DNA from: an uncultured Alphaproteobacteria bacterium
Lineage (GTDB): Bacteria > Pseudomonadota > Alphaproteobacteria > HIMB59 > GCA-002718135
DNA: 64,000 nt
Reading direction: 5' to 3'
Assembly (NCBI GenBank): GCA_902618385.1
Contig: CACNAF010000003.1
Span: forward strand, 6,852-70,851
Part shown: positions 10,492 to 64,000 of the stretch, in pieces
Layout of the letters: each line of letters starts with the position of its first letter
Numbering within the stretch: position 1 is the stretch's first letter
The notes under the pieces: generated by a model
What the model saw: the letters and a program-made list of their open reading frames with translations, nothing else
What the model was told of the DNA's origin: nothing
Databases searched by the model: none
Made by a program: the position numbers and the translations under genes

Positions 10492-10496
10492 TAGTT

Positions 10497-37512: not shown

Positions 37513-38067
37513 ATGAGTACCGCAGAAAATCCAGCTTTGGTTCTTAATGCTGATTTTCGGCCGCTATCTTATTACCCACTTTCTTTATGTTCATGGCAAG
37601 ATGCCATCAAAGCTGTTTTTCTAGAAAGGGTTTCAGTAATCGAAAATTACGAACAAGAAGTTCATTCTCCAAATCTTACTTTTAAGTTACCAAGTGTAAT
37701 AGCTTTAAAAGATTATGTTACTCCACAACGAAAACCTGCTTTTACACGTTTTAACGTTTTTTTGAGAGATAATTTTACTTGTCAGTATTGTACCAATCGT
37801 TTTCCTGCAAACGAACTAACATTTGACCATCTAGTTCCTAAATGTCTGAATGGAAAAACTACTTGGGAAAATGTTGTCTCTGCGTGCACATCCTGTAATT
37901 TAAAAAAAGGAAGAAAACTTATACAGAATACAGATATGAAACTTTTTAAAAAACCTCTTCGACCATCGTCAATTCAATTACAAAATAATGGTAGAAATTT
38001 CCCTCCTAATTTTTTGCATGAGACTTGGAGAGACTATTTATATTGGGATACAGAATTAGAAAATTAA
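37513..38067 (+). CDS. HNH endonuclease (conserved alphaproteobacterial McrA-like family)
   Basis: ALVLNADFRPLSYYPLS, CQYC, TFDHLVP, WENVVSACTSCN. Confidence 0.88.
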   Translation: MSTAENPALVLNADFRPLSYYPLSLCSWQDAIKAVFLERVSVIENYEQEVHSPNLTFKLPSVIALKDYVTPQRKPAFTRFNVFLRDNFTCQYCTNRFPANELTFDHLVPKCLNGKTTWENVVSACTSCNLKKGRKLIQNTDMKLFKKPLRPSSIQLQNNGRNFPPNFLHETWRDYLYWDTELEN

Positions 38068-38633: not shown

Positions 38634-39099
38634 AGTTTCTAAATAAGTAAATAGCATTTAAAATAAAAATAACTAGTAAAACAAGCGTATTAATTGAAGC
38701 AGCAGAAATTCCATAAAAACTCCAAATAACTTCATCACAACTAATTACCTGCTTTGATAATATCTGCGCTTTGAGATCTGCAGCATTATCACTGTTAGTT
38801 AGCATTGCTGAACAACCTGCTGGTCCTTTAAGAATTTTATTTTCTACTCCTACGTGCCATATAGAATAAAAAAGACCATAAACTGATGCAAACTGTATTA
38901 CTAAATAAAACCAAATTTTATTTAAATTTTTGAATAAAAATATCAAAATTAAACATATTAAAATTAAATAATACGGATGTCTTTGCTTTAAACACAATTC
39001 ACATGGCTGAAGATTAAAAAAATATTCTGCAATTAACGCTGATGATATCGAAATAAGCGAAATAAAAAATAAAAGTGTTATCCAATTACGAATTATCAT
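38605..39099 (-). CDS. dsbB: Disulfide bond formation protein B family
   Basis: PCELCLKQR, HVGVE, second Cys pair, four TM helices. Confidence 0.85.
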   Translation of the reverse strand: MIIRNWITLLFFISLISISSALIAEYFFNLQPCELCLKQRHPYYLILICLILIFLFKNLNKIWFYLVIQFASVYGLFYSIWHVGVENKILKGPAGCSAMLTNSDNAADLKAQILSKQVISCDEVIWSFYGISAASINTLVLLVIFILNAIYLFRNYGSKKEKNV

Positions 39100-39680
39100 A
39101 AAAATCTAATTATAAAAACACTTCCAACAAGTAAAATAAAAAACACAATGGTTAAAAAATTAAAATATTTATCAATAATTAACTTAATTTTTTCACCAAA
39201 AAAATAAAGAAGTATTGCTATCAAATAAAATCTTAATCCTCGGCCAATAATAGAAACAAAAATAAACAAAAAAATATTTAATCCAAATACGCCGCTTGCA
39301 ATAGTAATAAACTTATAAGGAAATGGAGTTATTCCTGCACCAAGAACAATCAATATACCAAATTCTTTGTAATAGCTTTCAAAAATATTAAAAGAATTTT
39401 CTAAATGATAAAAGTCTACAATGTAAATACCTACTGAATTATAAAAAAAATATCCTATTACATATCCTAGTATTCCACCAAGTACTGAAAAGAGTGTACA
39501 TATAAATGCATAAAATAGAGCATTTGCTTTGGAAGCTAACGCCATTGGTATAAGCAGTATATCTGGTGGAATTGGAAAAAATGAGCTTTCTACAAATGAT
39601 ATTAGACTTAAATACCACTTTGCATTTTTATGTTGTGCTTTTTCTAAAGTCCAATTGTAAATTCTTTTAAGAAAATTCAT
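39096..39680 (-). CDS. YqaA/DedA (SNARE-associated) membrane protein
   Basis: SFVESSFFPIPPD, TPFPYK, GRGLRF. Confidence 0.88.
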   Translation of the reverse strand: MNFLKRIYNWTLEKAQHKNAKWYLSLISFVESSFFPIPPDILLIPMALASKANALFYAFICTLFSVLGGILGYVIGYFFYNSVGIYIVDFYHLENSFNIFESYYKEFGILIVLGAGITPFPYKFITIASGVFGLNIFLFIFVSIIGRGLRFYLIAILLYFFGEKIKLIIDKYFNFLTIVFFILLVGSVFIIRFL

Positions 39681-44240: not shown

Positions 44241-44978
44241 ATGAGATTAGATAAAAAAAATATTATAGTCACTGCAGCTGCGCAAGGTATAGGAAGAGCA
44301 ACAGCACTTAAATTTGCAAATGAAGGGGCTAAAGTTTTAGCAACTGATATTAATGAAGATAAACTAAATGATTTAAAAAATGAAAATGAGAGTATCCAAA
44401 CTATGAAATTGGATTCAACAAACAAAAAAGATGTAGAGGCCTTTTGTTCTTCTGTAGACAAGATTGATGTTTTATTTCACGCAGTAGGTTTTGTTCATCA
44501 CGGAACAATTCTTGATTGTGATGAAGATGAATTTTCACGATCAATAAATGTTAATATATTTTCTGCATATTTAATGACCTACAATCTTTTGCCGAAAATG
44601 TTGAAAGAAAAGAAAGGTAATATCGTTATTGTTTCTTCTGCTGCATCTAATGTTAAAGGTGTGCCTAATAGGTTTATTTATGGAACTACAAAAGCAGCAT
44701 TAAATGGTTTTGTAAAAGCCATAGCTATTGATCACATTAAAGATGGAATTCGCTGTAACGCTATTTTACCAGGCACTGTTGAAACACCTTCTTGGGAGGG
44801 TAGAGTTAACATGGCCGATGATCCTATTAAAGCAAGATCAGACTTTATAGCAAGACAGGCAATGGGAAGATTAGCACAACCAGAAGAAATAGCATCGCTT
44901 GCAACTTATCTAGCAAGTGATGAATCAGATTTTGTAACTGGAACACTAAACTTAATTGATGGAGGATGGACTTTATAA
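44241..44978 (+). CDS. SDR oxidoreductase, 2-keto-3-deoxy-L-fuconate dehydrogenase/BDH2-like
   Basis: TAAAQGIG, G.VHHGTIL, NRFIYGTTKAA, PGTVETPS, FIARQ.MGR. Confidence 0.8.
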   Translation: MRLDKKNIIVTAAAQGIGRATALKFANEGAKVLATDINEDKLNDLKNENESIQTMKLDSTNKKDVEAFCSSVDKIDVLFHAVGFVHHGTILDCDEDEFSRSINVNIFSAYLMTYNLLPKMLKEKKGNIVIVSSAASNVKGVPNRFIYGTTKAALNGFVKAIAIDHIKDGIRCNAILPGTVETPSWEGRVNMADDPIKARSDFIARQAMGRLAQPEEIASLATYLASDESDFVTGTLNLIDGGWTL

Positions 44979-45826
44979 TGAAAACTTTAAGATACAGAAT
45001 TGGAAATGAAGTTAAGCCAGGAATACTTGATCAAGAAGGAAATATTCGCGATGTATCATCTCTTGTAAAGGATTGGGACAATAAAAATGTAACTATTAGC
45101 AAGTTGAATGAAGTCAAAAAAATTGATCCTTCATCTTTACCTTTAGTTGAAAATAGTGAGGGATATGCACCTTGTGTTTGTAAAGAAAGTATTGGAAAAT
45201 TTATTTGTATTGGGCTTAATTATTCTGATCATGCTGAAGAAACTGGTGCAAAAGTTCCACCTGAGCCAATTATTTTTGCAAAGGCAACAAGTGCAATTAT
45301 CGGAGCAAATGATAACGTAGAGATACCAAAAAAATCAGTAAAGTCTGACTGGGAAGTTGAGCTTGGTGTTATTATTGGAAAAGAAGCAAAATATATTTCT
45401 GAGAGTGAATCACAATCTCATATTGCGGGATACTGTGTCATCAATGATCTTAGTGAAAGAGAATTTCAAATAGAACATTCTGGTCAATGGGTTAAAGGTA
45501 AGTCTTGTGACACATTTGGTCCAATCGGACCATATTTGGTAACTACTGATGAAGTACCAGATCCTCAAAACTTAAAAATGTGGCTGGATGTTAATGGTAA
45601 AAGAATGCAAGATGGCTCAACAAGTACAATGGTTTACGGAGTAAACTTTTTAATAAGTTATTTAAGCCAATTTATGTCATTACAACCTGGAGATATCATC
45701 TCAACAGGCACACCGCCAGGAGTTGGAATGGGAATGAAACCACAAGTATTTTTAAAAGCAGGTGATGTAATGAAACTTGGTATTGAGGGTCTGGGAGAAC
45801 AAACTCAAAAAACTATTCAGGCGTAA
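44978..45826 (+). CDS. Fumarylacetoacetate hydrolase family, 2,4-diketo-3-deoxy-L-fuconate hydrolase-like
   Basis: CIGLNY.DH, DWEVEL, NDLSER, QWVKGKSCDTFGP, TGTPPGVG; TAATG overlap with the SDR gene. Confidence 0.82.
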   Translation: MKTLRYRIGNEVKPGILDQEGNIRDVSSLVKDWDNKNVTISKLNEVKKIDPSSLPLVENSEGYAPCVCKESIGKFICIGLNYSDHAEETGAKVPPEPIIFAKATSAIIGANDNVEIPKKSVKSDWEVELGVIIGKEAKYISESESQSHIAGYCVINDLSEREFQIEHSGQWVKGKSCDTFGPIGPYLVTTDEVPDPQNLKMWLDVNGKRMQDGSTSTMVYGVNFLISYLSQFMSLQPGDIISTGTPPGVGMGMKPQVFLKAGDVMKLGIEGLGEQTQKTIQA

Positions 45827-46980
45827 TGTTTGGCAATATTAATAATTGTCATAATGTTAAAGATTTTAGAAACTTAGCAAAAAAAAGACTACCTAGTCCA
45901 ATATTCCATTACATCGATGGTGCTGCTGATGATGAGATAACTTATAAAAGAAATACAGATGCCTATGAGCAATGTGACTTGATCCCCAATGTATTAAGCG
46001 GTGTTGATAAAGTTGATATTTCAACTACTGTAATGGGACAAAAGTTAGATATGCCTTTGTATTGTGCACCAACTGCTCTTCAACGATTGTTTCATCATGA
46101 AGGTGAAATTGGAGTTGCAAAAGCTGCAGAAAAATTTGGAACAATGTTTGGAATTTCTTCTTTAGGGACTGCCAGTATTGAAGAAATATCAAATTTAGTC
46201 AAAACACCTAAATTATTTCAACTTTATGTTCACAAGGATAAAGGATTAAATAAAGCACTTATAGAAAGATGTAAGGAATCAAATTTTGAAGCTATGGCTG
46301 TTACTGTGGATACTGCTGTTGGAGGAAACCGTGAACGAGATTTATATACGGGTTTCACTATTCCAATGAAATTAAAACTTAATAGTGTCCTAAGTTTTAT
46401 GCTTCATCCAAAGTGGGCAGTAGATTATTTTACAAAACCTAAATGGGAGTTAAGTAATTTAAAAGATCATATTAATGAGGGCACAACAGTAATGACAACT
46501 ATCGGAGATTACTTCACAAAAATGCTTGATAATTCCATGAGCTGGAAAGATGTGGAAAATATTAATAAAGAGTGGGGTCGTCAATTTGCTATTAAAGGTG
46601 TGATGTCTGTAGACGATGCAAAAAAAGCTGTAGATGTAGGTGCTTCAGCTATAATGGTTTCAAATCATGGAGGTCGACAATTGGATGGTTCAAGATCACC
46701 ATTTGATCAACTAGCTGAAATTGTAGATGCTGTGGGAGATAAAATAGATGTAATTTGTGAAGGAGGAATAAGAAGAGGTACTCATGTTTTAAAAGCACTG
46801 TCACTTGGTGCAAAAGCCTGTTCCGGTGGAAGAATGTATTTATACGCATTGGCAGCAGGAGGTCAAAAAGGTGTTGAAAAAAGTTTATCTAATTTACGCA
46901 ATGAAATTGAACGAGATATGAAATTAATGGGAGTTTCTAACATTAAAGAACTAACAAGAAAAAATCTAAAATTCAGATAA
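45826..46980 (+). CDS. lldD: FMN-dependent alpha-hydroxy acid dehydrogenase (L-lactate dehydrogenase-like)
   Basis: YIDGAA.DE, FQLY, TVD...G.RERD, SNHGGRQLD, GGIRRG. Confidence 0.8.
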   Translation: MFGNINNCHNVKDFRNLAKKRLPSPIFHYIDGAADDEITYKRNTDAYEQCDLIPNVLSGVDKVDISTTVMGQKLDMPLYCAPTALQRLFHHEGEIGVAKAAEKFGTMFGISSLGTASIEEISNLVKTPKLFQLYVHKDKGLNKALIERCKESNFEAMAVTVDTAVGGNRERDLYTGFTIPMKLKLNSVLSFMLHPKWAVDYFTKPKWELSNLKDHINEGTTVMTTIGDYFTKMLDNSMSWKDVENINKEWGRQFAIKGVMSVDDAKKAVDVGASAIMVSNHGGRQLDGSRSPFDQLAEIVDAVGDKIDVICEGGIRRGTHVLKALSLGAKACSGGRMYLYALAAGGQKGVEKSLSNLRNEIERDMKLMGVSNIKELTRKNLKFR

Positions 46981-47040
46981 ATCAACAACTTTCTTAAAAA
47001 AAATATTTATTCTAATTCAATTTTATTTTACAAATTTTTT

Positions 47041-47361
47041 ATGAATGTTGAAATAGATCCAATCCTAGTTGGTGAGACTGATGATATCGAAGTTGGAACT
47101 GTGGAAAGTTTTGAACATGAAGATGTTAATTACGCAGTTTATCATTTAGAGCCAGGATTTTTTTGTACACAGGGAAACTGTAATTGTGAGGAGAAAGCAC
47201 CTTTGAGTGAATCTGAAATTGAAGGAGAAGAGTTAGAGTGTGTTGGTTGTGGTAATACTTATAGTATTGTTTCAGGTGATTGTATTAGTGATCCTGAATT
47301 GGATGGTCTTAAGATCTTTGACATCTCCGAAGAGGATGGAAAAATTTACTTAAATATCTAA
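47041..47361 (+). CDS. Rieske-fold ferredoxin (MocE-like) with His-to-Cys ligand substitutions
   Basis: YAVY...GFFCTQGN-CNC-x17-CVGC-GNTYSIVSG.C..P...L..F.I..EDG.IY follows the Rieske ferredoxin layout except at the two His positions. Confidence 0.75.
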   Translation: MNVEIDPILVGETDDIEVGTVESFEHEDVNYAVYHLEPGFFCTQGNCNCEEKAPLSESEIEGEELECVGCGNTYSIVSGDCISDPELDGLKIFDISEEDGKIYLNI

Positions 47362-48323
47362 CTTATAATTTTAAGATTTATAATATTATTTTTGTTTAAA
47401 TTTTTACTTTTAGTTAAAAAATCAAAAACATTTTCACACGATTCTACAGACATCCTTTTTCTACATTCTAGAGTTAAAGCAGCATTATGTGGTGTCAACA
47501 AAGTATTACTTAAAGAAAATAGTTTATGATTTTCTATTGGTGGTTCTTTTTCAAATACATCAACACCAGCTCCAAAAATTTTTTTATTTTTTAAAGCTTC
47601 ATATAAGGCATCTTCATTAATTATACCGCCTCTTGCGGTATTAATTAAAATCAAATTAGATTTAAAAATTTCAAATTGATCAAACGAAATCAAATTTTTA
47701 GTTTCTTCATTTAAAGGTAAATGGATACTTATATAATCAGCAATTTTAAAGCCTTCTTCTTTATTGATTGGAATAAATTTGTGATTTTTTATCTCTTCAT
47801 CTGAAAGAAATGGATCATGCACATAAATTTCCATTTCAAACCCACTACATCTTTTTGCAAGAGCTTTTCCTATTCTGCCAAAACCAAGAATTAAAATTTT
47901 TTTATTATAGAGTTCAAAGTAATTGGGTAAATTAACCTTTTCTTGAAATTTACCTAATTTAACTAATCTATCTGATTCAAAAATATTTTTTGTTAAACAA
48001 AGCATCATTGTCATTACATGTTCAGCTACACTAGTCGCATTTGCTGTTCCAGTAATGGCCATAGCTATCTTATTATTATTTAAATATTCAGTATCTACAT
48101 TGTCATAGCCAACACCATGTCTTGCAACAATTTTTACGTTCTTTGCTTGAGAGAGTATATTTTTATTTATTTCTGCCGTTCTTACAACAATACCATCCAC
48201 ATCTTTTAATTTTTCTATTAAATGATCTTCATCAATATTATTAGTGACAAAGTACTCAATATTATTTTTATCAAATATCTCATATCCACTAGGATGAATT
48301 TCACCAACAATCCCAACTTTCAT
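47358..48323 (-). CDS. D-isomer-specific 2-hydroxyacid dehydrogenase (SerA-like, no ACT domain)
   Basis: RHGVGYDNVD, SVAEH, GFGRIG, INTARGG, DVFEKEP, TPHNA. Confidence 0.88.
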   Translation of the reverse strand: MKVGIVGEIHPSGYEIFDKNNIEYFVTNNIDEDHLIEKLKDVDGIVVRTAEINKNILSQAKNVKIVARHGVGYDNVDTEYLNNNKIAMAITGTANATSVAEHVMTMMLCLTKNIFESDRLVKLGKFQEKVNLPNYFELYNKKILILGFGRIGKALAKRCSGFEMEIYVHDPFLSDEEIKNHKFIPINKEEGFKIADYISIHLPLNEETKNLISFDQFEIFKSNLILINTARGGIINEDALYEALKNKKIFGAGVDVFEKEPPIENHKLFSLSNTLLTPHNAALTLECRKRMSVESCENVFDFLTKSKNLNKNNIINLKIIS

Positions 48324-48423
48324 GGATAATTTTATATTCTAAAATATTAGAAAAATAAATTGTTTAACTCTTTAAATTATTTTTTTATTATAATAGTATC
48401 AATTTTTTTTGTGAAAGGAACAT

Positions 48424-50268
48424 ATGAAAACAGTTAGAATGTCATGTTCACATGCATTAATTAAATATTTAACTATGCAAAAAATTTTAATTAATGGAAA
48501 AAAAGAACCACTATTTCCAGGAGCTTTCGGTATTTATGGCCATGGTAATGTTGCTTGTATTGGACAAGCTATGGAAGAATATCAAAATGAACTTCCTGGA
48601 TACAGAGGTCATCATGAACAAAATATGGCACTAACAGGTATTGCATATGCTCGTGCCAAAAGAAGACAACAAATATTTGTAGCAACTTCATCTGTTGGAC
48701 CTGGTTCTACTAATATGGTTACAGCTGCTGCAGTTGCTTTAAGTAATAGACTTCCAATTTTACTTTTACCAGGTGATACATTTTCTAGTCGTTTTCCAGA
48801 TCCTGTTTTACAACAAGTAGAACATTTTAATTCTCCTTCAGAAACTCAAAATGATTCATTTAAATCTGTATCAAGATATTTTGATCGAATCACTAGACCT
48901 GAACAAATTTTAACATCTTTACCGCAAGCAATTAATGTAATGCTTGATCCTGCAGACTGTGGCCCTGCAGTAATTTCTATGTCTCAAGATGTTCAAGGAG
49001 AAGCGTATGATTATCCTGAAATCTTTTTTGAAGAAAAAATTCATGAAATTAGAAGAATTCATCCTGATCCAAATCAAATACAAAAGGCAGCTGATAAATT
49101 AAAACAATCTAAACAACCAATTATTATTTCAGGTGGAGGCGTTTTATATTCAGAAGCAGAAGAGGAAATTTCTGCTTTTGCAAAAAAACATAATATTCCT
49201 GTAACAGCAACTGTGATGGGTATTGGTTGTATGAATAAAGATGATCCTTATTATATAAGTGCAATTGGATGTTTAGGAGAAGGTTCATCTAATAATCTTG
49301 CTACTGATACAGATTTAGCACTAGCTGTGGGAACAAAGTTAGGAGACTTTACAACTGGCTCTTGGACTAATTTTGAAAACGAAAATTTTCAACTTGTATC
49401 AATAAATACTTCACGATTTGATACTACAAAACATCGCGCTACTCCTGTTGTAAGCGATGCAAAAATTGGACTTCAAGAATTATCAAAGGCATTAGGAGAT
49501 TGGAAAGCACCAGATAATTGGTACCAGCGTTCAATTGAGGAAAGAAATAAATGGGATGAATATGTTGCCAAAGAAAGTGGACCAACAAATCAAGAATTAC
49601 CATCCTATGCTCATGCTGTAGGTGCAGTTTATAGAAACTCAGACCCATCAGATATTGTTGTAACCGCAGCTGGAGGGTTAGTTGGTGAAGTGGTTCAAAT
49701 ATGGAAACCAAAAGAACTAAATACTTTTGAAACTGAATGGGGATTTAGTTGTATGAGCTATGAAATATCAGGAGCACTTGGAATCAAAATGGCAAAACCT
49801 GAACAAGATGTAATTGTATTTGTAGGCGATGGTTCATACCTCTTACAAAATAGCGATATTTACAGTTCAGTCTTATATGATAAAAAATTAATTATAGTTG
49901 TTTGTGATAATGGCGGTCACATGGTTATTAATAGATTGCAACTAGCAAAAGGTGGCAATGAATATCTTTGCAATCTTAATGCTGCAAGAGCGACAAATGT
50001 ACAGTTTGTTGATTTTGAAGCTCACGCAAAAAGTATGGGGGCAAACGGTGAGACTGTTAAATCCATTTCAGAGTTAGAGGCCGCTTTTAAAAGAGCAAAA
50101 GAATCAGACAAAACATACGTAATTTCTATGAAAACAGATGGATATGAATGGCTAGAAGGAACTGCTTTTTGGGAAAGCCCAACACTTGAAGTGGATAATA
50201 CCGAAGGTAAGAAATCAGCTCTTAACGAATTTTTAGAAGGAAAAAATAAACAACGTAAGGGCGTATAA
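48424..50268 (+). CDS. iolD: 3D-(3,5/4)-trihydroxycyclohexane-1,2-dione acylhydrolase (ring-opening)
   Basis: GIYGHGNV, GPGSTNMVTAA, PDPVLQQVE, SRYFDRITRPEQ, EWGFSCMSYEI, VGDGSY ThDP motif. Confidence 0.92.
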   Translation: MKTVRMSCSHALIKYLTMQKILINGKKEPLFPGAFGIYGHGNVACIGQAMEEYQNELPGYRGHHEQNMALTGIAYARAKRRQQIFVATSSVGPGSTNMVTAAAVALSNRLPILLLPGDTFSSRFPDPVLQQVEHFNSPSETQNDSFKSVSRYFDRITRPEQILTSLPQAINVMLDPADCGPAVISMSQDVQGEAYDYPEIFFEEKIHEIRRIHPDPNQIQKAADKLKQSKQPIIISGGGVLYSEAEEEISAFAKKHNIPVTATVMGIGCMNKDDPYYISAIGCLGEGSSNNLATDTDLALAVGTKLGDFTTGSWTNFENENFQLVSINTSRFDTTKHRATPVVSDAKIGLQELSKALGDWKAPDNWYQRSIEERNKWDEYVAKESGPTNQELPSYAHAVGAVYRNSDPSDIVVTAAGGLVGEVVQIWKPKELNTFETEWGFSCMSYEISGALGIKMAKPEQDVIVFVGDGSYLLQNSDIYSSVLYDKKLIIVVCDNGGHMVINRLQLAKGGNEYLCNLNAARATNVQFVDFEAHAKSMGANGETVKSISELEAAFKRAKESDKTYVISMKTDGYEWLEGTAFWESPTLEVDNTEGKKSALNEFLEGKNKQRKGV

Positions 50269-50302
50269 TAATAAATCTCTTTTTCTAAAATTTAAAAATT
50301 GT

Positions 50303-51331
50303 ATGAGTCAAAACAAGCCTATAATTTTAATAGATCCATATCCTAGAACAATGGATCTACTTTTTTCAAAAGAAAATTTAAACTACTTAAAAAAAAATTT
50401 TAAACTTATTACTGCCCCAAATAAAAATAAAAATAATTTTTATGAAAAAAATTTACCAAAGGCAGATTATATCTTTGGGCAACCCAATTTACCTTCATCC
50501 TTAATTTCTAAATCCACAAAACTTAAAGCAATATTTAATGTAGAAAGCAATTTTATGGACAATATGGACTACGATTATTGTTTTAGAAAAGGGATACATG
50601 TTTTAGCAACATCTCCTGTGTTTGCTCAACCTGTTGCTGAAATGGCAATGGGTCTTACTTTATCTATAGCCAGAAGTATACATATTGCTCATTCAGACTT
50701 TATTTCAAAAAAAGAAAAATATGGTGGTGCAATAAGCCAGAATAATTTTTTAATAAAAAATAAAACATTTGGTTTAATTGGATTTGGTGATTTAGCTAAA
50801 TCACTTACTCCTATACTTAAAGCATTCTCTAATAACATCATTGCCTATGATCCTTGGATTCCCAATAAAGAAATAGAAAAATTTGATGTTAATCCTACTA
50901 GTTTAAATTCTTTACTCAAAAATGCTGATATCATTTATGTATTAGCCTCCATTACTTCTTCTAATGAATCTATGATTAATTCTTCTAAACTTAAATTAAT
51001 AAAAGATGGATCAGTGTTTGTCTTAATGAGTAGAGCAGCTATAATAAATTTTGATGATTTTTTTAATTTTTTAAAAAATAGAAATGTGTTTGCTGCCATT
51101 GATGTTTTCCCACAAGAACCATTTCCTAAAAATCATAAATTAAGAAAACTCAAAAATGTAATTTTTTCTCCGCATAGGGCTGGCGCATTAGACAGTGCAT
51201 TTAAAGAGATGGGTGAATTAGTAATTCAAGATTTAAAACTTATTTCAAAAGGTCTGCCGCCTAAATTATGTAAAAAAGCTGAAAGAGAAACTGTTAAATA
51301 TTTACGTTCAAAACCAGTTGATATTAATTAA
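50303..51331 (+). CDS. D-isomer-specific 2-hydroxyacid dehydrogenase family
   Basis: PVAEM, GLIGFGDLA, YDPW, MSRAA, DVFPQEP, SPHRAG. Confidence 0.82.
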   Translation: MSQNKPIILIDPYPRTMDLLFSKENLNYLKKNFKLITAPNKNKNNFYEKNLPKADYIFGQPNLPSSLISKSTKLKAIFNVESNFMDNMDYDYCFRKGIHVLATSPVFAQPVAEMAMGLTLSIARSIHIAHSDFISKKEKYGGAISQNNFLIKNKTFGLIGFGDLAKSLTPILKAFSNNIIAYDPWIPNKEIEKFDVNPTSLNSLLKNADIIYVLASITSSNESMINSSKLKLIKDGSVFVLMSRAAIINFDDFFNFLKNRNVFAAIDVFPQEPFPKNHKLRKLKNVIFSPHRAGALDSAFKEMGELVIQDLKLISKGLPPKLCKKAERETVKYLRSKPVDIN

Positions 51332-51351
51332 AATTTATTTAAAAACACACT

Positions 51352-52098
51352 ATGTCAGATAACTTAGTACTAGAAGCTAAATCAGTTTCGAAATTTTTTG
51401 GTACTATTACAGCTCTTCAAAATGTAGATCTTCATTTAAATAAAGGTGAGGTTCTTGGTGTCGTCGGTGATAACGGTGCTGGGAAATCTACATTAATGAA
51501 AGTTTTATCAGGATTATATAAGCCAAGCGAAGGTTCACTTTTTTTTGATAAGGAAAAAGTAACTTTAAATAGTCCCAGAGACTCACAAAATTTGGGCTTA
51601 GAAATGGTATATCAAGATTTAGCGCTAGCTGGGAATCTCCCTATCGGTGATAATATTTTTCTAGGAAGAGAGCCAACAAGAAAGGTTGGCCCTTTCAATT
51701 TTTTAGATCATAAAAAAAGAAAACAATTAACTGAAGAGCATCTTGCAAAACTTAAAATAAATGTAAAGAGTGCTGATCAAAAGGTTGAAGAATTATCAGG
51801 TGGACAAAGACAAGCAGTTGCAATTGCTAGAGCTACAGCTTTTAATGCAAAAATTGTTTTGATGGATGAGCCAACAGCAGCACTTGCTGTTAAGGAAGTT
51901 GGGAAAGTTTTAGACTTAATTTTAAATCTTAAAAAGTTAGGTGTTAGTGTAATAGTAATTAGCCATCGAATGGATGATATTTTTACTGTTTGTGATCGCG
52001 TAATGGCACTTTTTCAAGGAACAAATTTCGCTGAATCAGAATTAAAAAACACTTCAAGGGACGAAGTGATTGGATGGATCATGGGGAAAAAAGATTAA
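51352..52098 (+). CDS. Sugar ABC transporter ATP-binding protein (single-domain, CUT2)
   Basis: GDNGAGKST, LSGGQRQ, MDEPT, SH switch. Confidence 0.93.
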   Translation: MSDNLVLEAKSVSKFFGTITALQNVDLHLNKGEVLGVVGDNGAGKSTLMKVLSGLYKPSEGSLFFDKEKVTLNSPRDSQNLGLEMVYQDLALAGNLPIGDNIFLGREPTRKVGPFNFLDHKKRKQLTEEHLAKLKINVKSADQKVEELSGGQRQAVAIARATAFNAKIVLMDEPTAALAVKEVGKVLDLILNLKKLGVSVIVISHRMDDIFTVCDRVMALFQGTNFAESELKNTSRDEVIGWIMGKKD

Positions 52099-53105
52099 TG
52101 GATAAGAATCAAGAATCTTTATTTGTCAGACTTATTCCTTTTTTTGAAAGATATGGAATCTTATTACTTATCCTAATAATGATAGCTGTTTTGCATTTGT
52201 TGCAACCTGATGTTTTTTTATCATGGAGAAATGTAACAAATATTTTTAAACAAGTTTCTTGGCAGTCTATGTTAGCACTTGGTGTCTTTATGGTCATTGT
52301 AACTGCAGGTATAGATCTATCAGTCGGTTCAATTATTATGTTATCATTAATGGGACTCGCTATTGCTTCGAAGGCAGGAATGCCTTGGTACGTTGTCATG
52401 TTAGTTGCGCCAGCAATTGGATTTTTGTGTGGTATGTTTAATGGTATTGGAATTACCTTACTTCGAATGCCTCATCCATTCATAATGACACTAGGGACGC
52501 TTTATATATTTAGAGGTATTGGTAATCTAATATCCGGAGGTGTTCCAATAACAGGTTTTGCTGAGCAGATTAGAGTTATAGGAAATGGTAAAATTAAACT
52601 AGATGTAATTTTTGGAGAAGGCGCTAGAGAGTACATTCCCACAAGTTTAATTTTAATGATTGTAATATTTTTTATTTTTTGGATATTTTTAAATCATACA
52701 AGAATAGGTAAATGGATTTATGCGATTGGAGGCAACCCAGGAGCAGCTAGGGCAGCAGGTATTAATGTAGATCGAATTTTGATCGTAGTTTACACCCTTT
52801 GTGGTTTCTTGGCTGGTATTGGAGGTTTAATTTTAGCCGGAAGAACAAATTCCGCTTATCCAAATGCTGGTTTACAATCTGAGCTAGATGCGATTGCAGC
52901 AGTCATTATAGGTGGAGCAAGCTTCTTTGGGGGTAGGGGAACTGTTTTAGGTGTATTTGCTGGAGTCATGATTATGGGTATACTCCGAAATGGTCTAAAT
53001 TTAATGAATGTTAGTGTTTTCTGGCAACAAGTTCTCATTGGGTCAATTATTATTTTGGCTGTTTATATCGATGTTCTAAGAAGACAACTTGCAACCAGAA
53101 CATAA
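52098..53105 (+). CDS. Sugar ABC transporter permease (RbsC family)
   Basis: GIDLSVG, PFIMTLG, YAIGGN..AARAAGI, ELDAIAAVIIGG; start at TAATG overlap. Confidence 0.93.
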   Translation: MDKNQESLFVRLIPFFERYGILLLILIMIAVLHLLQPDVFLSWRNVTNIFKQVSWQSMLALGVFMVIVTAGIDLSVGSIIMLSLMGLAIASKAGMPWYVVMLVAPAIGFLCGMFNGIGITLLRMPHPFIMTLGTLYIFRGIGNLISGGVPITGFAEQIRVIGNGKIKLDVIFGEGAREYIPTSLILMIVIFFIFWIFLNHTRIGKWIYAIGGNPGAARAAGINVDRILIVVYTLCGFLAGIGGLILAGRTNSAYPNAGLQSELDAIAAVIIGGASFFGGRGTVLGVFAGVMIMGILRNGLNLMNVSVFWQQVLIGSIIILAVYIDVLRRQLATRT

Positions 53106-53193
53106 TATCAAAAAATAATCACTTTCTGACAAACAGTCACTTGATTAGAATTTCATTTTTGATTAATGGTTAAAAAAAATTTTAGGAGGAAAA

Positions 53194-54111
53194 ATGAAAT
53201 TTTTTATTTCTATAATTACTACTTCTGTATTGTTTTTTTCAGGTAGTCTTTTAGCAGGCTCACATGCAAAAACAATTATGCTAAGTACTAAAGGACCAGG
53301 TGCTGGAAACCCTTTTTGGGCTTCAGTTGAAGCTGGTGCTAAAGATGCTGCTGAAGAATTAGGTGTAAACCTTATTATCCTTTCACCACCACAAGAGAGT
53401 GATGTTATGGCTCAGGTAGCGCAAATTGAAGACCAAATTGCTAAAGGTGTAGACGGTATAGCGATTGCACCAACTGACCCTAACGCAGTTGCACCAATTC
53501 TTGATGATGCAATGGCTTCAGGTGTTCCAGTTGTATACATTGATACTAATGGAATTAATGAAGGTGTAACTTTCATTGGTACAAACAATATTAATGGTGC
53601 TGCTTTAGCTGCTCAATACATTTGTGATAATGTTCCAAGTGGTTCTGATGTTGCAATCCTTCAAGGGATGATCACACAAACTACTGGTCAACACAGAGCT
53701 GAAGGATCACACAAAGGTCTTGAAGCATGTGGCATGAACATTGTTGCTGAACTTCCAGCTAACTGGGATACTGCACAAGGTATGTCAGTAACGGAAGATA
53801 TCATCACTGGTAACCCAAATCTAAAAGCAATCTTTGCTTCTAACGATAATATGGGTCTAGGTGCTATCCAAGCATTAAAAAATGCTGATATGCTAGATGA
53901 TGTTGTCGTTGTTGGATTTGATGCTAACCCTGATGCTGCTGCAAGTGTAATGGCTGGTGAAATGTCAGCAACTATTGCTCAATTCTCATACAACATGGGA
54001 TACATGGGTGTAGAAAATGCACTTAAATTAGCTAATGGTGAGAGCATTCCAGATAACATTGATACTGGAACTGTATTAGTTACTAAAGAAAACGCTGCAG
54101 ACTTTATGTAA
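53194..54111 (+). CDS. Sugar/polyol ABC substrate-binding protein (RbsB family)
   Basis: Signal peptide, NPFW, ASNDNMGLGA, VVGFD; AGGAGG SD. Confidence 0.92.
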   Translation: MKFFISIITTSVLFFSGSLLAGSHAKTIMLSTKGPGAGNPFWASVEAGAKDAAEELGVNLIILSPPQESDVMAQVAQIEDQIAKGVDGIAIAPTDPNAVAPILDDAMASGVPVVYIDTNGINEGVTFIGTNNINGAALAAQYICDNVPSGSDVAILQGMITQTTGQHRAEGSHKGLEACGMNIVAELPANWDTAQGMSVTEDIITGNPNLKAIFASNDNMGLGAIQALKNADMLDDVVVVGFDANPDAAASVMAGEMSATIAQFSYNMGYMGVENALKLANGESIPDNIDTGTVLVTKENAADFM

Positions 54112-54131
54112 GTCTAAGCAAAATTATTTTT

Positions 54132-54164
54132 AAAAGGCCGTAATTTTTTACGGCCTTTTTTTTT
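54132..54164 (+). terminator. Intrinsic terminator after the first SBP gene
   Basis: AAAAGGCCGTAA-tttt-TTACGGCCTTTT followed by a T run. Confidence 0.85.
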
Positions 54165-54203
54165 ACTATTCCATTTTTTACAATTGATTTATAGAAACAA
54201 TTT

Positions 54204-55355
54204 ATGAAAAATATTGGTCTAATTGGTTGTGGTAATATAGCAGAGACCTATTTCCGTGCTCAGGAATATTTTAACAATATAAATTTTGTTGCTTGTGCTG
54301 ATATTAATTTAGATGCCGCTAAAAAAACAGCTGATCAATATAATATTATTCCTTTATCAGTTGATGAAATACTTAATGACAAGAATGTAGACATCATTCT
54401 TAATCTCACAATTCCCCAAGCGCATTATGAAATATCTAAAAGAGCTCTTGAGGCAAACAAACATGTTTATTGTGAAAAACCAATGAGTGTTAAGTTTGAT
54501 GAAGCAAAAGAATTATTAAATTTAGCAAAAAAAAATAGTCTCTACATTGGGAATGCACCCGATACTTTTTTAGGAGGAGGAGGTCAACTTACACGAAATT
54601 TAATTGACAACAATGATATTGGACAAGTTCTAACTGGTAATTTTATATTTGCTTTTCCTGGCGTTCAAGATTTTCATCCTAGTCCTGAGTCTTGGTTTCA
54701 AGAAGGAGGAGGACCGGTAATAGACATGGGTCCATATTTTTTTACCACCCTTGTTAATCTTCTAGGTCCGGTAAAAAATATAAGAGGAAGAGGAGCTAAA
54801 TTTTCTGATAAAAGAGAATACAAAGCTGGTCCAAAAAAAGGAGAAACTTTTAATGTTGAAATTCCAACTTCTTATATGTTTAATATTGAGTTTCAAAATA
54901 AAGCTATCATTCAAGGTTTCATTTCATTTGATGTTTTAAATCATAAACGTAATCATATGGAGCTTTATGGAACGAAAGGTTCAATAGTAGTGCCTGATCC
55001 AAATATGTTTGGTGGTCCAGTTTCCATATCTGGTGAGTTTGGATCTGAATGGAAAGATATTAGCGTAGAAGATAAACCCCTTGGAAAAACAAATATAGTT
55101 AACCATAGTGGAAGAAGTAATGAGGCGCCTGAACAAGCGAACTACAGGGGTATTGGGTTAGCCGAAATGATTGACGCTATCGAAAATAATAGAATGCATA
55201 GGTGTAATGGAGAACTTGCTCTTCACGTTCTAGATGTAATCGATTGTGCTATGATCTCTTCAATTTATAAAGTGGAAGTAGAGCTCCGTTCTTCGTGTGT
55301 GAAGCCTGAACCAATGCATGATGATTTCATAAGGCAAATCCTAAAAAAAATATAA
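54204..55355 (+). CDS. Gfo/Idh/MocA family oxidoreductase
   Basis: GCGNIA, HVYCEKP, GNAPDTFLG, GGGPVIDMGPY, ELYGTKG. Confidence 0.9.
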   Translation: MKNIGLIGCGNIAETYFRAQEYFNNINFVACADINLDAAKKTADQYNIIPLSVDEILNDKNVDIILNLTIPQAHYEISKRALEANKHVYCEKPMSVKFDEAKELLNLAKKNSLYIGNAPDTFLGGGGQLTRNLIDNNDIGQVLTGNFIFAFPGVQDFHPSPESWFQEGGGPVIDMGPYFFTTLVNLLGPVKNIRGRGAKFSDKREYKAGPKKGETFNVEIPTSYMFNIEFQNKAIIQGFISFDVLNHKRNHMELYGTKGSIVVPDPNMFGGPVSISGEFGSEWKDISVEDKPLGKTNIVNHSGRSNEAPEQANYRGIGLAEMIDAIENNRMHRCNGELALHVLDVIDCAMISSIYKVEVELRSSCVKPEPMHDDFIRQILKKI

Positions 55356-55467
55356 ATTTTGCTTCGCTATTGAATTAGTGCGATAATTTTACAGCCTAAT
55401 TCCCAATATTTCTCCTTGTTTTACATACCCATTCTTGCTAGGAAAATATTATTTATAGGAGGAATGC

Positions 55468-56433
55468 ATGAAAAAAATTGCTTCAATTATTCTTGCCTCT
55501 GTAGCGCTTTTTGCTACTTCAGCGAAGGCAGAATACAAATTTAACTTCGTAATGCACAGTGATACGAACAATGCTTTCTGGGCAGCTGTTCACAAAGGTT
55601 TTAAAGATGCTTGTGCACAAATTAATGCTGATTGCCAAATGTTAACTCTTTCAGGTGATGGAGACCAACAAGAGCAATTACAAAACTTAGAGTCTTCAAT
55701 AGCTCAAGGTGTTGATGGTATCGTAACTACAATTACTAACCCAACTATCTTTGATGCTGCAGTTGATGAAGCATTAGCTGCTGGTATTCCAGTAATTACA
55801 GCTAATACTGATGATCCAGAAGGTGCTGCTGGTAGTAACAGACTAGCATATGTTGGACAAGACTTAGAAGCAGCTGGTTATGAATTAACAGCTAATCTTT
55901 CTGAAATGTTTCCTGATGGAGATATTCACGTTCTAATCGGTGTTGCAGACATGAACCAATCATGGGCATACACTAGAGGAAACGGTATTGCACGTTTCAT
56001 GGAAGATTACAAAGCAGCTAACCCTGATAGAAAAGTAACTTATGAGAAAATCGAATCAGGTCTAGATCTTTCAACTGTTGGAAACAGAGTGGCAGCTTAT
56101 GTTCAAGCTAACCCAAATACAACTGCATATCTTGATGTAGGTTTCTGGGAAGCTGGTGCAGCTGCAGCAGTAAGAAACTTAGGTTACGGACCTGGTGAAA
56201 TACTTCTTGCTGGTTTTGACTTAGTTGACGTAGTTTTTGAAGAAATGGACAAAGGTTATGTTCAACTAACAGTTGACCAACAACCATACTACCAAGGTTA
56301 CATGTCAGTTCACCAATTATACTTAATGAACAAGTATGGTTTAAGTGCACTAGATATCAACACTGGTAAAGCTATGATTGGTCCTGATGATGTTGAAACA
56401 ATCAGATCATTCAAAGGAATGTCAGTTAGATAA
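55468..56433 (+). CDS. Sugar/cyclitol ABC substrate-binding protein
   Basis: Signal peptide (AKA-E), N.FW..V..G, YVGQD, AGFD, DQQPYYQGY; AGGAGG SD. Confidence 0.9.
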   Translation: MKKIASIILASVALFATSAKAEYKFNFVMHSDTNNAFWAAVHKGFKDACAQINADCQMLTLSGDGDQQEQLQNLESSIAQGVDGIVTTITNPTIFDAAVDEALAAGIPVITANTDDPEGAAGSNRLAYVGQDLEAAGYELTANLSEMFPDGDIHVLIGVADMNQSWAYTRGNGIARFMEDYKAANPDRKVTYEKIESGLDLSTVGNRVAAYVQANPNTTAYLDVGFWEAGAAAAVRNLGYGPGEILLAGFDLVDVVFEEMDKGYVQLTVDQQPYYQGYMSVHQLYLMNKYGLSALDINTGKAMIGPDDVETIRSFKGMSVR

Positions 56434-56440
56434 ATATCGT

Positions 56441-56472
56441 AACCAGGCTCTTTAAATAGAGCCTGGTTTTTT
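56441..56472 (+). terminator. Hairpin/partial terminator between SBP and permease
   Basis: AACCAGGCTCT-ttaaat-AGAGCCTGGTT followed by TTTT. Confidence 0.75.
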
Positions 56473-56485
56473 ATTAAAAAAAAAT

Positions 56486-57466
56486 ATGAGTAAAAATTTT
56501 AGTCTTAGAAGTTTATTAGTAAGACCAGAAGTAGCAACCTTCTTAATGTTTCTAGCAATAATGATTGGATTTTATATTGCTAATGAGAGATTTTTAGATG
56601 CAAGAAATATAAGAATAGTTATGGGTATTACACCCGAATATATTATTGTTGCAATTGGGATTGCAATATTAATGATCTCAGGTGAATTTGATTTATCTGT
56701 AGGCTCTGTTTTTGCATTAGTCCCGATGACTATTGTACAAATGGTGCATCAAGGGATACCACCTTGGTTTGCTATTTTTCTAGGATTAATGATTGGTATT
56801 ATTGTTGGTTTTGTTAATGGATTTATTACCTTAAGATTTGGAATCCCTTCTTTCATCGCAACTCTTGGAATGCTCTACATTGCTAGAAGTCTTACAACTG
56901 TAGCTACTGCAGGATTTCCACCACCATTTCCTCATATTTTACCAAATGAGTTATTTGTTTATCAATTTGAGTTATTTAGAGCTTCCTTGTACTGGGCTCT
57001 TTTAGTTGCCGTAGTTTTGGGTGTTATGCTTCACAGAAGTAATGTTGGTAACTGGATCTATGCAACTGGCGGAGATCAAAACGCAGCATCTTCAATGGGA
57101 ATAAAGACTGGAAACGTTAAAATGTTTTGTTTCATCTTATGTGGTTTTTTAGCTGGCTTTGCAGGAATGATTCAAACATTTAGATTGGAAGCACCATTAC
57201 CATCTCAAGGATACTTATTAGAATTAGAGTCAATTGCTGCAGCAGTTATTGGTGGTGTCAGTTTATTTGGAGGTATCGGAACAGTTTTTGGTGCCGTTAT
57301 TGGCGCAATACTAATCAGGTTTTTAGAAAGTGGAATCATTATGGCTAGAATAGATGCTGAATGGTTTAGAGCAGGTTTAGGTTCTTTAATTATCATAGCC
57401 GTAGTGTTTAATACTTATATAAGTAGAAGAGCGACACGAATTGGTCAAAACAAGGCAAAGGATTAA
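56486..57466 (+). CDS. Sugar ABC transporter permease
   Basis: GEFDLSVGS, PSFIATLG, GNWIYATGG, ELESIAAAVIGG. Confidence 0.92.
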   Translation: MSKNFSLRSLLVRPEVATFLMFLAIMIGFYIANERFLDARNIRIVMGITPEYIIVAIGIAILMISGEFDLSVGSVFALVPMTIVQMVHQGIPPWFAIFLGLMIGIIVGFVNGFITLRFGIPSFIATLGMLYIARSLTTVATAGFPPPFPHILPNELFVYQFELFRASLYWALLVAVVLGVMLHRSNVGNWIYATGGDQNAASSMGIKTGNVKMFCFILCGFLAGFAGMIQTFRLEAPLPSQGYLLELESIAAAVIGGVSLFGGIGTVFGAVIGAILIRFLESGIIMARIDAEWFRAGLGSLIIIAVVFNTYISRRATRIGQNKAKD

Positions 57467-57468
57467 AG

Positions 57469-58206
57469 ATGGAAGATATAATTGTTTGTGAGGGTCTAAA
57501 CAAATACTATTCAGGAGTTCATGCTTTAAAAGATTTAAGCTTAAAGATAAAAAAAGACTCTGTTGTTGGTCTTATTGGAGACAATGGTGCTGGTAAATCA
57601 ACATTAATTAAAATTTTATCTGGTGCACATCAACCTGACTCAGGTCATATATATTTTGAAGGTAATAAGGTTAAATTTAAATCTACAAAAGAAGCAATGA
57701 ATTTAGGTATTGAAACAATTTATCAGTATTCAGCTTTGATTCCTGAAATGTCTATTGCAAGAAATATTTTTATTGGACGTGAACAAACTCAATATAATGT
57801 TGGCAATTTTGGTTTGATGAAAACTAAAACCATGCAGGACGATGCGATGAAAGCATTAACAGATGTTGAACTGCATCTTCGATCTCCAGATACACCAGTT
57901 AACCAATTATCCGGAGGTGAAAGACAAGGTGTTGTCATTGCAAGAGCAATGTATTTTAAATCAAAAGTTTTAATATTAGACGAACCAACAAACCACCTAT
58001 CAGTAAAAGAAACAAATAAAGTACTAAGGTTTGTAGAAGGATTAAAAAGCCAAGGTGTGACATCAATATTTATTACTCACAACTTGAGTCATGTGTATCC
58101 TATTGCTGATCATTTATGTGTAATGGCAAGAGGTGAAAAAATTGCTGATTTGGATAAAAAGGATACAACAATAGATCATCTCACTGATTTATTAGTAAAT
58201 GGATAA
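57469..58206 (+). CDS. Sugar ABC transporter ATP-binding protein (single-domain)
   Basis: GDNGAGKST, LSGGERQ, LDEPT, TH switch. Confidence 0.93.
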   Translation: MEDIIVCEGLNKYYSGVHALKDLSLKIKKDSVVGLIGDNGAGKSTLIKILSGAHQPDSGHIYFEGNKVKFKSTKEAMNLGIETIYQYSALIPEMSIARNIFIGREQTQYNVGNFGLMKTKTMQDDAMKALTDVELHLRSPDTPVNQLSGGERQGVVIARAMYFKSKVLILDEPTNHLSVKETNKVLRFVEGLKSQGVTSIFITHNLSHVYPIADHLCVMARGEKIADLDKKDTTIDHLTDLLVNG

Positions 58207-58219
58207 TTTGGGAGGAATT

Positions 58220-59155: not shown

Positions 59156-59169
59156 TTTAATTATCAAGC

Positions 59170-60147
59170 ATGGAAGTTAATCTCGATGATTGGTACAGAC
59201 CAGAAGTCGACAGAAAAAAATTAAAAGCCTTAAGTAAAAGAAGAGATCTACCTGGACTAATCCATTTCTTCTTTTATTTTTTATCTTTATTTATTTCAGG
59301 ATATTTAGCATACATTACTTTAGGTACGTGGTGGACATATCTATTCTTTTTTATTTATGGTACAATTTACGCGTTCAGTGTAGCAAACTGGCATGAAACT
59401 GTTCATCGAACTGCATTCAAGACTCGTTGGATAAATGAATTTTTTTATCACATCAGTTCTTTTATGTGTGATTTTGAAGGTTTTAGATGGCGTTGGAGTC
59501 ATACTTTTCATCATTCAAAAACATTACAAACAGAAGATGATTATGATCACGAAATTCAAGTATCAAGACCGATAGAATTATTTGCATTCTTTTTGAATTT
59601 TATACCTCTAACAGATTTATTATACCCACATAAATTAATTAAATTTGAAGTTTTAAAACATTCTTTTGGAAAATTCACTCCAGTTATTGATATAACTGCA
59701 CCAAAAGAAGAAAAGAAAAAAATTCTTTGGAACTCTAGATTATATGTCTTTATTTGGTTATCAGTCATTGCATATTCTTTTTACATAGGTTCTTTTTTAC
59801 CAATTATTTATATTATTCTTCCAACTTATATCGGAAAGCCAATTTGGTTTGCTGTTAATGTAACTCAACACTTAGCTGCTAAAGTCGATACTAAAGATCA
59901 CCGTTTAAGCACTTATTCTGTAAGAATAAACCCAATTTTAAGTTTTCTTTATTGGCATATGGAATATCATTTAGAACATCATATGTTCCCGATGATACCT
60001 TCCTATAATCTTAAAAAATTAAGAAAAGAAATAGACGATCAATTACCTAAACCTTTCAAAAGCTTATTTGAATTTTATAGACTTGTTCTTCCATCTGTTA
60101 TAGCTTTGGCCACTAATCCTGAAAAATATTATAAAGTAAAAATTTAA
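59170..60147 (+). CDS. Membrane di-iron desaturase/hydroxylase, rhizopine oxygenase MocD-like
   Basis: His boxes HETVH, HTFHH, QH and HLEHH; WY...DRK.LKAL..R.D N-terminus and DHRL....INP..FLYW.M.YH.EHHMFP recalled as MocD-like. Confidence 0.8.
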   Translation: MEVNLDDWYRPEVDRKKLKALSKRRDLPGLIHFFFYFLSLFISGYLAYITLGTWWTYLFFFIYGTIYAFSVANWHETVHRTAFKTRWINEFFYHISSFMCDFEGFRWRWSHTFHHSKTLQTEDDYDHEIQVSRPIELFAFFLNFIPLTDLLYPHKLIKFEVLKHSFGKFTPVIDITAPKEEKKKILWNSRLYVFIWLSVIAYSFYIGSFLPIIYIILPTYIGKPIWFAVNVTQHLAAKVDTKDHRLSTYSVRINPILSFLYWHMEYHLEHHMFPMIPSYNLKKLRKEIDDQLPKPFKSLFEFYRLVLPSVIALATNPEKYYKVKI

Positions 60148-60154
60148 TTGAACT

Positions 60155-63485: not shown

Positions 63486-64000
63486 ATGCACAAAAAACCT
63501 CTATCCAAACAAATATATGATGCAAGATGGTGTTACTTATTTGTTTTACCATGTTCAATTCTTACAGGGATGTTTGTCATTTATCCAATCGGAATGTCTT
63601 GGTATTTTTCTTTATTAGATTGGAGTGGTTTTACAAAAGAGGCAAAATTCATTGGCCTTCAAAATTATTATGAAGCTGTCAATGATGAATTTTTTTGGGA
63701 TGCATTTATTCGTTCTTTTATTTTTATGTTTGGAACAGTTCCAATAAAAATAGTTTTAGGTTTCATTATTGCAGTATTTTTAAATAATCAGGTTTTAAAA
63801 CTTGCCCCTTTCTTTCGTACTGTAATCTTTATGCCTGTAGTTACTGCAATTGCTATCATTGGTATTGTAATGACTTTTGTATTTAGCCCATTTAATGGAC
63901 CTGCTAATAAATTTTTAATGTCTACTAATTTAACTTCTGCTCCAATTGATTTTCTTGGAAATCCAGACACAGTGCTTCCAACTGTAATGGGAGTATATGT
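63486..64000 (+). CDS. Carbohydrate ABC permease (MalF/UgpA-like), truncated by window end; not in the ORF track
   Basis: My translation from ATG 63486: MHKKPLSKQIYDARWCYLFVLP...YP...SLLDWSG...FIGLQNY...FFRTVIFMPVV...GPAN. Confidence 0.88.
   Translation, partial: MHKKPLSKQIYDARWCYLFVLPCSILTGMFVIYPIGMSWYFSLLDWSGFTKEAKFIGLQNYYEAVNDEFFWDAFIRSFIFMFGTVPIKIVLGFIIAVFLNNQVLKLAPFFRTVIFMPVVTAIAIIGIVMTFVFSPFNGPANKFLMSTNLTSAPIDFLGNPDTVLPTVMGVY

Follow-up and report, generated by a model that had tools for sequence, protein, structure and literature searches.

Can the Rieske ferredoxin fold persist in nature once both of its histidine ligands have been exchanged for cysteine and, if so, what does such a protein hold and which enzyme does it serve? 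What marks out a Rieske centre is its pair of His ligands, to which it owes its high, pH-dependent potential. The question is raised by one ORF in the window, by which we mean the whole 64,000-nucleotide stretch of DNA, from an uncultured alphaproteobacterium, that was analysed here. A first-pass annotation, made from the sequence alone, had described its product as a Rieske-fold ferredoxin with Cys in place of both His ligands, and had offered it as electron donor to a MocD-like di-iron enzyme encoded further downstream. We refer to the product as the all-Cys protein and list the features discussed in Table 1. The all-Cys family is a real, conserved and lineage-restricted natural variant of the Rieske ferredoxin fold.

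Table 1. Positions of the features discussed, in the window unless contig C6 is named.
Feature	Location	Strand	Remarks
SDR dehydrogenase, first cassette gene	44241..44978	+	Pfam adh_short_C2; position conserved across loci
FAH-family hydrolase	44966..45826	+	Best match 2,4-didehydro-3-deoxy-L-rhamnonate hydrolase, 389.5 bits, below the cut-off of 500
FMN-dependent alpha-hydroxy acid dehydrogenase (FMN_dh)	45826..46980	+	Best match L-lactate dehydrogenase, 318 bits, below the cut-off of 376
A+T-rich 60-bp spacer	46981..47040	+	From FMN_dh stop to start of the all-Cys gene; read from sequence
All-Cys gene, predicted Rieske fold	47041..47361 (stop codon included)	+	ATG start; translation of 106-aa ORF
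First ligand loop, C47-N48-C49	47179..47187	+	C49 in the predicted place of the first His ligand
Codons of C47 and C49	47179-47181; 47185-47187	+	TGT both
Second ligand loop, C67-V-G-C70, then G71	47239..47250	+	C70 in the predicted place of the second His ligand
Codons of C67 and C70	47239-47241; 47248-47250	+	TGT both
D-isomer 2-hydroxyacid dehydrogenase, convergent	47358..48323	-	3' end overlaps the all-Cys gene stop by 4 bases
FA_desaturase-family (MocD-like) gene	59170..60147	+	PF00487, 119.5 bits; 11.8 kb downstream of the all-Cys gene
FA_desaturase	Contig C6 (L088, G000) 6196-7182		Canonical MocD/MocF/MocE-like set
Pyr_redox_2 ferredoxin reductase, 409 aa	Contig C6 7188-8417		Canonical set
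CTH..CPMH (CxH..CxxH) Rieske ferredoxin, 105 aa	Contig C6 8470-8787		MocE_fam, 135.4 bits
Second FA_desaturase	Contig C6 9639-10655		Canonical set
Fatty-acid-hydroxylase-like gene	Contig C6 10694-11698		Canonical set

Translation of the ORF bore out the details on which the annotation had relied. The protein has Cys at positions 42, 47, 49, 67, 70 and 81, all six encoded by TGT, with a ligand spacing of CxC-x17-CxxC that leaves Cys42 and Cys81 as extra residues. It contains 18 Glu and 9 Asp (27 in all) against 3 Lys and no Arg, with a computed pI of ~4.05. Its 25.5% Asp+Glu, 2.8% Lys and 0% Arg (2.8% basic overall) compare with 12.6%, 8.5% and 3.4% (11.9% basic) in the pool of 25 other window proteins. 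The statement that a His-to-Cys change takes two base changes per codon was likewise correct, being CAY versus TGY in the genetic code.

The product is, on profile and model evidence, a Rieske-fold protein. A profile search and a structure prediction had been suggested as checks of the fold, and they agree. The Pfam Rieske profile PF00355 scored 26.6 bits against a gathering score of 20.3, with residues 8-93 lying on profile positions 3-87 of 88. The AlphaFold2 model, built on a 100-row alignment that includes canonical ferredoxins, reached a mean pLDDT of 88.3 and a pTM of 0.74. When this model was compared with the PDB by Foldseek, the top 23 listed chains were all Rieske ferredoxins (TM 0.83-0.88), among them CarAc (2de5_D, E 1.7e-8, TM 0.85, rmsd 1.7) and BphF (1fqt, TM 0.88), and a protein atlas search returned Rieske-named clusters only. 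Moreover, the family profile aligned without gaps to BphA3 (2e4p) and BphF (1fqt), placing C47 and C67 on their Cys ligands and C49 and C70 on their His ligands. C49 and C70 are, as read from this alignment, the residues that occupy the places of the Rieske His ligands. The CxH...CxxH ligand set of two Cys and two His is absent from the all-Cys protein, as it is from all 115 family sequences.

Among known proteins, the ferredoxins BphF/BphA3, CarAc and the MocE family are the nearest by sequence and by tree. They share fold and size (TM 0.85-0.88, rmsd 1.6-1.9 over ~100 residues), loop positions, spacing, the Pro loop and an acidic surface. The all-Cys protein differs from these oxygenase ferredoxins in having Cys for both His, in its more extreme charge and in the lack of an adjoining oxygenase or reductase gene. 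Its scores fell far short of the curated thresholds for named ferredoxin families, with 35.7 against 136.15 for MocE_fam (TIGR02377) and 28.9 against 150 for HcaC. NirD, the mostly cluster-free small subunit of nitrite reductase, is comparable in being a small Rieske fold that departs from CxH..CxxH. However, NirD-like chains rank lower in Foldseek (TM 0.77-0.80, with 3c0d and 4aiv among the matches), the NirD models (TIGR02378 / PF13806) gave 27.8 bits against a cut-off of 74.65, no NirB is found among the window ORFs, and the all-Cys protein has four conserved Cys at the ligand positions.

All 115 distinct family sequences of 106 aa carry the four ligand Cys, invariant and at the same position. 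The motif was present in 80/80 fetched genome loci, each with an intact 106-aa ORF, and held its position in 121 of 121 sequences, namely the query and the 120 relatives listed of 284 found by a word-indexed search. A deeper branch of the family, at 41-61% identity and counted among the 115, keeps the four Cys too, and conservation of CxC/CxxC in homologs, a further check that had been suggested, was borne out in that no close homolog was found retaining His. Across loci both TGT and TGC are in use at each of the four positions, and dN/dS lies at 0.04-0.14 (~0.1) for the pairs in which dS could be estimated. Because the four Cys are invariant, are written with both codons and stand in a gene with a dN/dS of ~0.1, we judge the double His-to-Cys change to be selected rather than decayed, as the annotation had suspected, and to be no artefact. 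It is very improbable that the all-Cys protein is a metal-free remnant, be it a ferredoxin paralog in decay or a protein that only disulfides stabilise. That account can appeal to the loss of both His ligands and to a MocE family score far under the cut-off, and has no other support; it runs against the constancy of the four Cys in sequences and loci alike, the synonymous TGT/TGC variation, the low dN/dS, a 106-aa frame that is intact everywhere, and alleles that keep the site even when saturated with synonymous differences (pS 0.79-0.81).

The remaining features of the family are conserved to differing degrees. In the 100-row alignment at least 90% of the sequences retain P85 of the Pro loop, G71 after the second loop is nearly invariant, and the family charge has a median of 27 Asp+Glu versus 3 Lys+Arg. 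Purifying selection has kept the four Cys, the Pro loop and the extreme negative charge in the clade. No conserved His that could substitute as a ligand was found, and 31 of the 115 members have no His at all. C42 and C81 are variable (A/S/C at 42 and S/C/P at 81) and do not co-vary; the commonest pairs among the 115 sequences are A42/S81 (44), S42/C81 (43), A42/C81 (9) and C42/C81 (9). This free variation rules out C42-C81 as a conserved pair, whether as a disulfide or as extra ligands.

Nucleotide comparison of window positions 47041-47400 with loci L033 and L042 showed 91-100% identity in the flanks and 66-72% exactly over the Rieske-like gene. In the same comparison, synonymous differences are saturated in the Rieske-like gene (pS 0.79-0.80) versus 0.27 in the adjoining FMN_dh. 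The drop in identity and the saturation therefore point to old alleles in otherwise similar backgrounds. Sequence classes are also seen in the SDR gene (78-84% versus 92-100%) and in the convergent 2-hydroxyacid dehydrogenase gene (62-78% versus 90-97%), and since these too split into identity classes we regard the region as a mosaic.

To place the family we searched 1.84 billion representatives exhaustively with the all-Cys protein as sole query, which at E up to 0.001 gave 121 matches. The 118 of these that the earlier search had not supplied comprise 5 all-Cys family members or fragments, 80 proteins with CxH..CxxH (spaced x16 in 74, x17 in 4 and x18 in 2) and 33 with neither motif, the last being mostly short fragments of the all-Cys family together with a few degenerate or chimeric sequences. 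We also built a quick maximum-likelihood tree (70 rows, 109 columns), in which many forks stayed unresolved. It unites the 13 all-Cys rows in a single clade (SH-aLRT 100), whose stem measures 1.06 changes per column. Beside this clade, with support 84, stands a group that contains the MocE-like paralog from the same genome and all three Rieske domains fused to FA_desaturase. Scanning of 14 multidomain relatives found three such FA_desaturase-Rieske fusions and three ferredoxin-reductase fusions. The former (P0153, P0163 and P0233) are distant relatives with a C-terminal Rieske ferredoxin domain; two others (P0151 and P0232) carry a protoglobin domain ahead of two Rieske domains.

At 57% identity or more the all-Cys gene occurs in 91 of 187 genomes of the order, all of family f1, and it is absent from 71/71 genomes of f2/g9. 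Named records that carry it are uncultured Alphaproteobacteria, Pelagibacterales or Pelagibacteraceae. As judged from the tree and these searches, the all-Cys family descends from MocE-type oxygenase ferredoxins and is found in one family-level, SAR11-like marine clade only. A scan of viral contigs for relatives gave 81 pattern matches, of which 0 were confirmed. A term search of a paper on the AEGEAN-169/HIMB59 clade (PMC10308909) returned no mention of Rieske proteins, lactate or inositol. Full-text searches of an open library, in which most subscription journals are missing, turned up no account of a naturally occurring Rieske-fold protein with an all-Cys ligand set; one may nevertheless be in print.

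Three centres are candidates for the four-Cys site: mononuclear Fe(Cys)4, an all-Cys [2Fe-2S] cluster and Zn(Cys)4. Rubredoxin, for example the AlkG of AlkB, resembles the all-Cys protein in its four-Cys site, in being a small and very acidic protein and in its C-x-x-C-G second loop, which is the knuckle form. However, the first loop of the all-Cys protein is CxC and not CxxC, its predicted fold is the three-sheet Rieske fold, and no rubredoxin family match was obtained at E up to 10. The one experimental parallel that we found is the S. solfataricus ferredoxin ARF. According to a review of its variants (PMC2946596), H64C carries a low-potential 3Cys/1His [2Fe-2S] cluster, H44C alone failed, and a rubredoxin-like Fe(Cys)4 site required CxxC..CxxC, as in H44I/K45C/H64C. 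The variant H44C/H64C has the CxC..CxxC pattern seen here, likewise on the scaffold of a Rieske ferredoxin, and its cluster assembly was largely impaired (PMC2946596), which counts against iron in the all-Cys protein. The ARF mutants are laboratory constructs, whereas the present pattern occurs in nature, is old and has been conserved, and its scaffold has altered along a long stem branch; that branch may have given the loops time to adapt to the ligand pattern of the double mutant. Hsp33, as described in PMC3184428, binds one zinc through the same kind of motif, Cys-X-Cys...Cys-X-X-Cys, and releases it on oxidation. It is an unrelated protein and fold with a different loop between the Cys pairs; its family profile did not match the all-Cys protein, and nothing in the analysis pointed to chaperone or switch behaviour.

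Because of the ARF variants, the Hsp33 motif and the knuckle-form loop, mononuclear iron, an all-Cys [2Fe-2S] cluster and zinc are all kept as options. We are evenly balanced on the reading we prefer, that the four Cys hold redox-active iron and that the protein is a small acidic one-electron carrier. The four Cys would bind metal, most likely iron, either at a mononuclear Fe(Cys)4 site like that of rubredoxin or as an all-Cys [2Fe-2S] cluster, and the carrier would then have a potential and a docking tip unlike those of its canonical, His-ligated paralog in the same genome. It is rather unlikely that they hold one zinc instead, as a structural zinc-ribbon-like site or an Hsp33-type thiol-zinc switch, in a protein acting as non-carrier subunit, adaptor or sensor. 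The knuckle form of the second loop would suit zinc, and NirD is a precedent for a cluster-free Rieske-fold subunit. The poor assembly of the engineered CxC..CxxC ARF points the same way, as does the likeness of Rieske loops to rubredoxin and zinc-ribbon knuckles, both reported in PMC2946596; so too does the binding of one zinc by the Hsp33 motif and its release on oxidation (PMC3184428). Zinc-ribbon matches over residues 48-79 (LysW, E 0.031; Trm112p, E 0.094) are weak and not significant. On the other side, the protein retains both the Pro loop and the spacing of the ligands in Rieske proteins, as expected for a binuclear site that has been kept, the extreme acidity is typical of electron carriers, and no NirB-like large subunit is encoded among the window ORFs.

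If the all-Cys protein is an electron carrier, its gene neighbourhood offers candidate partners. Four genes share one orientation here (SDR, FAH, FMN_dh and Rieske-like), and the all-Cys gene closes the series. In 78/80 loci its immediate upstream neighbour, on the same strand, is FMN_dh, an adjacency kept across genera g1, g2, g6 and g7. One exception (L075) is cut at a contig end; the other (L077, from the 91% complete genome G107) reads SDR-FAH-Rieske-like without FMN_dh. On the downstream side the convergent 2-hydroxyacid dehydrogenase gene is followed by IolD, which in L053 and L078 comes directly after the all-Cys gene. No terminator-like site was found in the spacer between FMN_dh and the all-Cys gene, and promoter-like sites were not enriched (28 versus 24.4 +/- 5.5 in shuffles). 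The first three genes presumably act as in the non-phosphorylative L-rhamnose/L-fucose routes, in which a 2-keto-3-deoxy sugar acid is converted to pyruvate and L-lactate, and the lactate to pyruvate.

We tentatively, and with more doubt than confidence, propose that the partner is this co-oriented enzyme set, and within it chiefly the FMN-dependent L-lactate dehydrogenase encoded immediately upstream. In flavocytochrome b2 a haem domain takes single electrons from reduced FMN, and the all-Cys protein may do likewise with the reduced FMN of the upstream dehydrogenase. A rubredoxin-like potential would suit electron uptake from reduced FMN; that of a low-potential all-Cys [2Fe-2S] cluster would not. 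The analogy lies in the pairing of an FMN L-lactate dehydrogenase with a small one-electron acceptor. However, the acceptor in flavocytochrome b2 is a fused, haem-bearing b5-like domain, whereas here a separately encoded Rieske-fold protein would take that part. We know of no solved or published pair of an FMN_dh and an Fe-S carrier.

An obligate partnership with FMN_dh is countered by the distribution of the two genes. The cassette also exists without the all-Cys gene: FMN_dh orthologs (64-84% identity) occur in 41/71 g9 genomes, which have the all-Cys gene in 0/71. In G125, dehydratase-SDR-FAH-FMN_dh is followed by an unrelated ORF, in G115 FMN_dh is followed by a 78-bp gap to the next gene, and L077 of G107 is the reverse case. 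Moreover, synteny inside one family-level clade may be mere inheritance. Co-occurrence over the 187 genomes singles out no partner, FMN_dh and FA_desaturase genes both being widespread without the all-Cys gene. Neither the canonical ferredoxin nor a MocF-like reductase is seen in ~22 of the 91 all-Cys genomes, from which we draw no inference because roughly this number is expected, by a rough estimate, from genome incompleteness alone (53-91% complete). An ortholog of FMN_dh at G045:C10:33668-34552 contains an in-frame TGA, possibly a broken gene or a single-cell assembly error.

Contigs from seawater RNA libraries covered parts of the all-Cys gene at 90% likeness or more in 4/4 libraries, from four studies: 47170-47340 in X1, 47211-47500 in X3, 46779-47054 and 47209-47425 in X4, and depth up to 47113 in X5. 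The first X4 contig begins within FMN_dh, crosses the spacer and ends 14 bases inside the all-Cys gene, too short an overlap to count as bridging its start. Such libraries may contain DNA, and their contigs do not show transcript ends. We take them as a weak sign that the all-Cys gene is expressed.

The donor role that had first been offered, in which the all-Cys protein would be a dedicated, reductase-fed, MocE-like donor to the di-iron enzyme at 59170, as rubredoxin is for AlkB, is not favoured by our data and we consider it improbable. Several observations do speak for it. The nearest relatives are MocE-type ferredoxins and 3 of the 14 scanned multidomain relatives are FA_desaturase-Rieske fusions. 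The island at 44-61 kb of the window contains IolD, a GFO/IDH/MocA oxidoreductase, sugar-binding proteins and the FA_desaturase gene, with no other ferredoxin. The co-occurrence expected with MocD-like genes held in so far as several genomes (e.g. G038, G025 and G090) have, on the contig that carries the all-Cys gene and ~12 kb away from it, an ortholog of the window's FA_desaturase at 88% identity or more. It failed at closer range, with an adjacent FA_desaturase gene in 0/80 loci and a 48-54% paralog within 10 kb in only 4/80. Moreover, G002 (92% complete) and G033 (90%) carry the all-Cys gene and only distant FA_desaturase paralogs, G068 (85%) carries it with no FA_desaturase at E 1e-40, and 58 of the 71 g9 genomes have an FA_desaturase gene without the all-Cys gene. 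No ferredoxin reductase gene lies within the 64-kb window.

A further argument against the donor role is that the genome already encodes a canonical trio, on contig C6, whose ferredoxin scores 135.4 bits on MocE_fam versus 35.7 for the all-Cys protein. The two ferredoxins are 33% identical. The genome itself (1.04 Mb, 65% complete) has five FA_desaturase-family genes, of which the one in the window is one. The canonical ferredoxin and reductase travel together, in that the five g9 genomes that match the query weakly are the only five with the reductase. A sugar ABC transporter (contig C6 3232-6029, minus strand) adjoins the canonical set (6196-11698). At G029:C34:4878-6106 the MocF-like reductase is split into two overlapping pieces, which may be a broken gene or an assembly error.

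We entertain, as possible if doubtful, a wider reading of the locus: that the Rieske scaffold has evolved a four-Cys iron centre, either rubredoxin-like or the first natural all-Cys [2Fe-2S] on this fold, a design that mostly failed in the laboratory. It would provide an abundant oligotrophic marine clade with a second ferredoxin of different potential, fed by an FMN lactate dehydrogenase or feeding AlkB/MocD-like oxygenases. Such a second ferredoxin would possibly be cheaper in iron. From a conserved natural family with Cys for both His one can learn how much ligand change the scaffold will bear and what compensating changes make this possible, and the all-Cys protein is a ready test of whether the fold can hold an all-Cys [2Fe-2S] cluster or a mononuclear site. 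Within one clade of streamlined bacteria of the surface ocean the family is common, and there iron economy and the use of sugar acids and inositol are of ecological interest.

The surroundings of the gene (window positions 44241-61387) form a sugar-acid/inositol catabolic island. Besides the SDR-FAH-FMN_dh cassette it holds IolD (771.7 bits, cut-off 715), two 2-hydroxyacid dehydrogenases, two sugar ABC transporter sets, a GFO/IDH/MocA oxidoreductase, a PhyH dioxygenase, the FA_desaturase-family gene and a Gig2-like/PhyH protein. Elsewhere in the window, two ORFs matched no Pfam family at thresholds (39096-39680 on the minus strand, 194 aa; 63486-63998 on the plus strand, 171 aa and open at the window end), and an HNH endonuclease ORF lies at 37513-38067.
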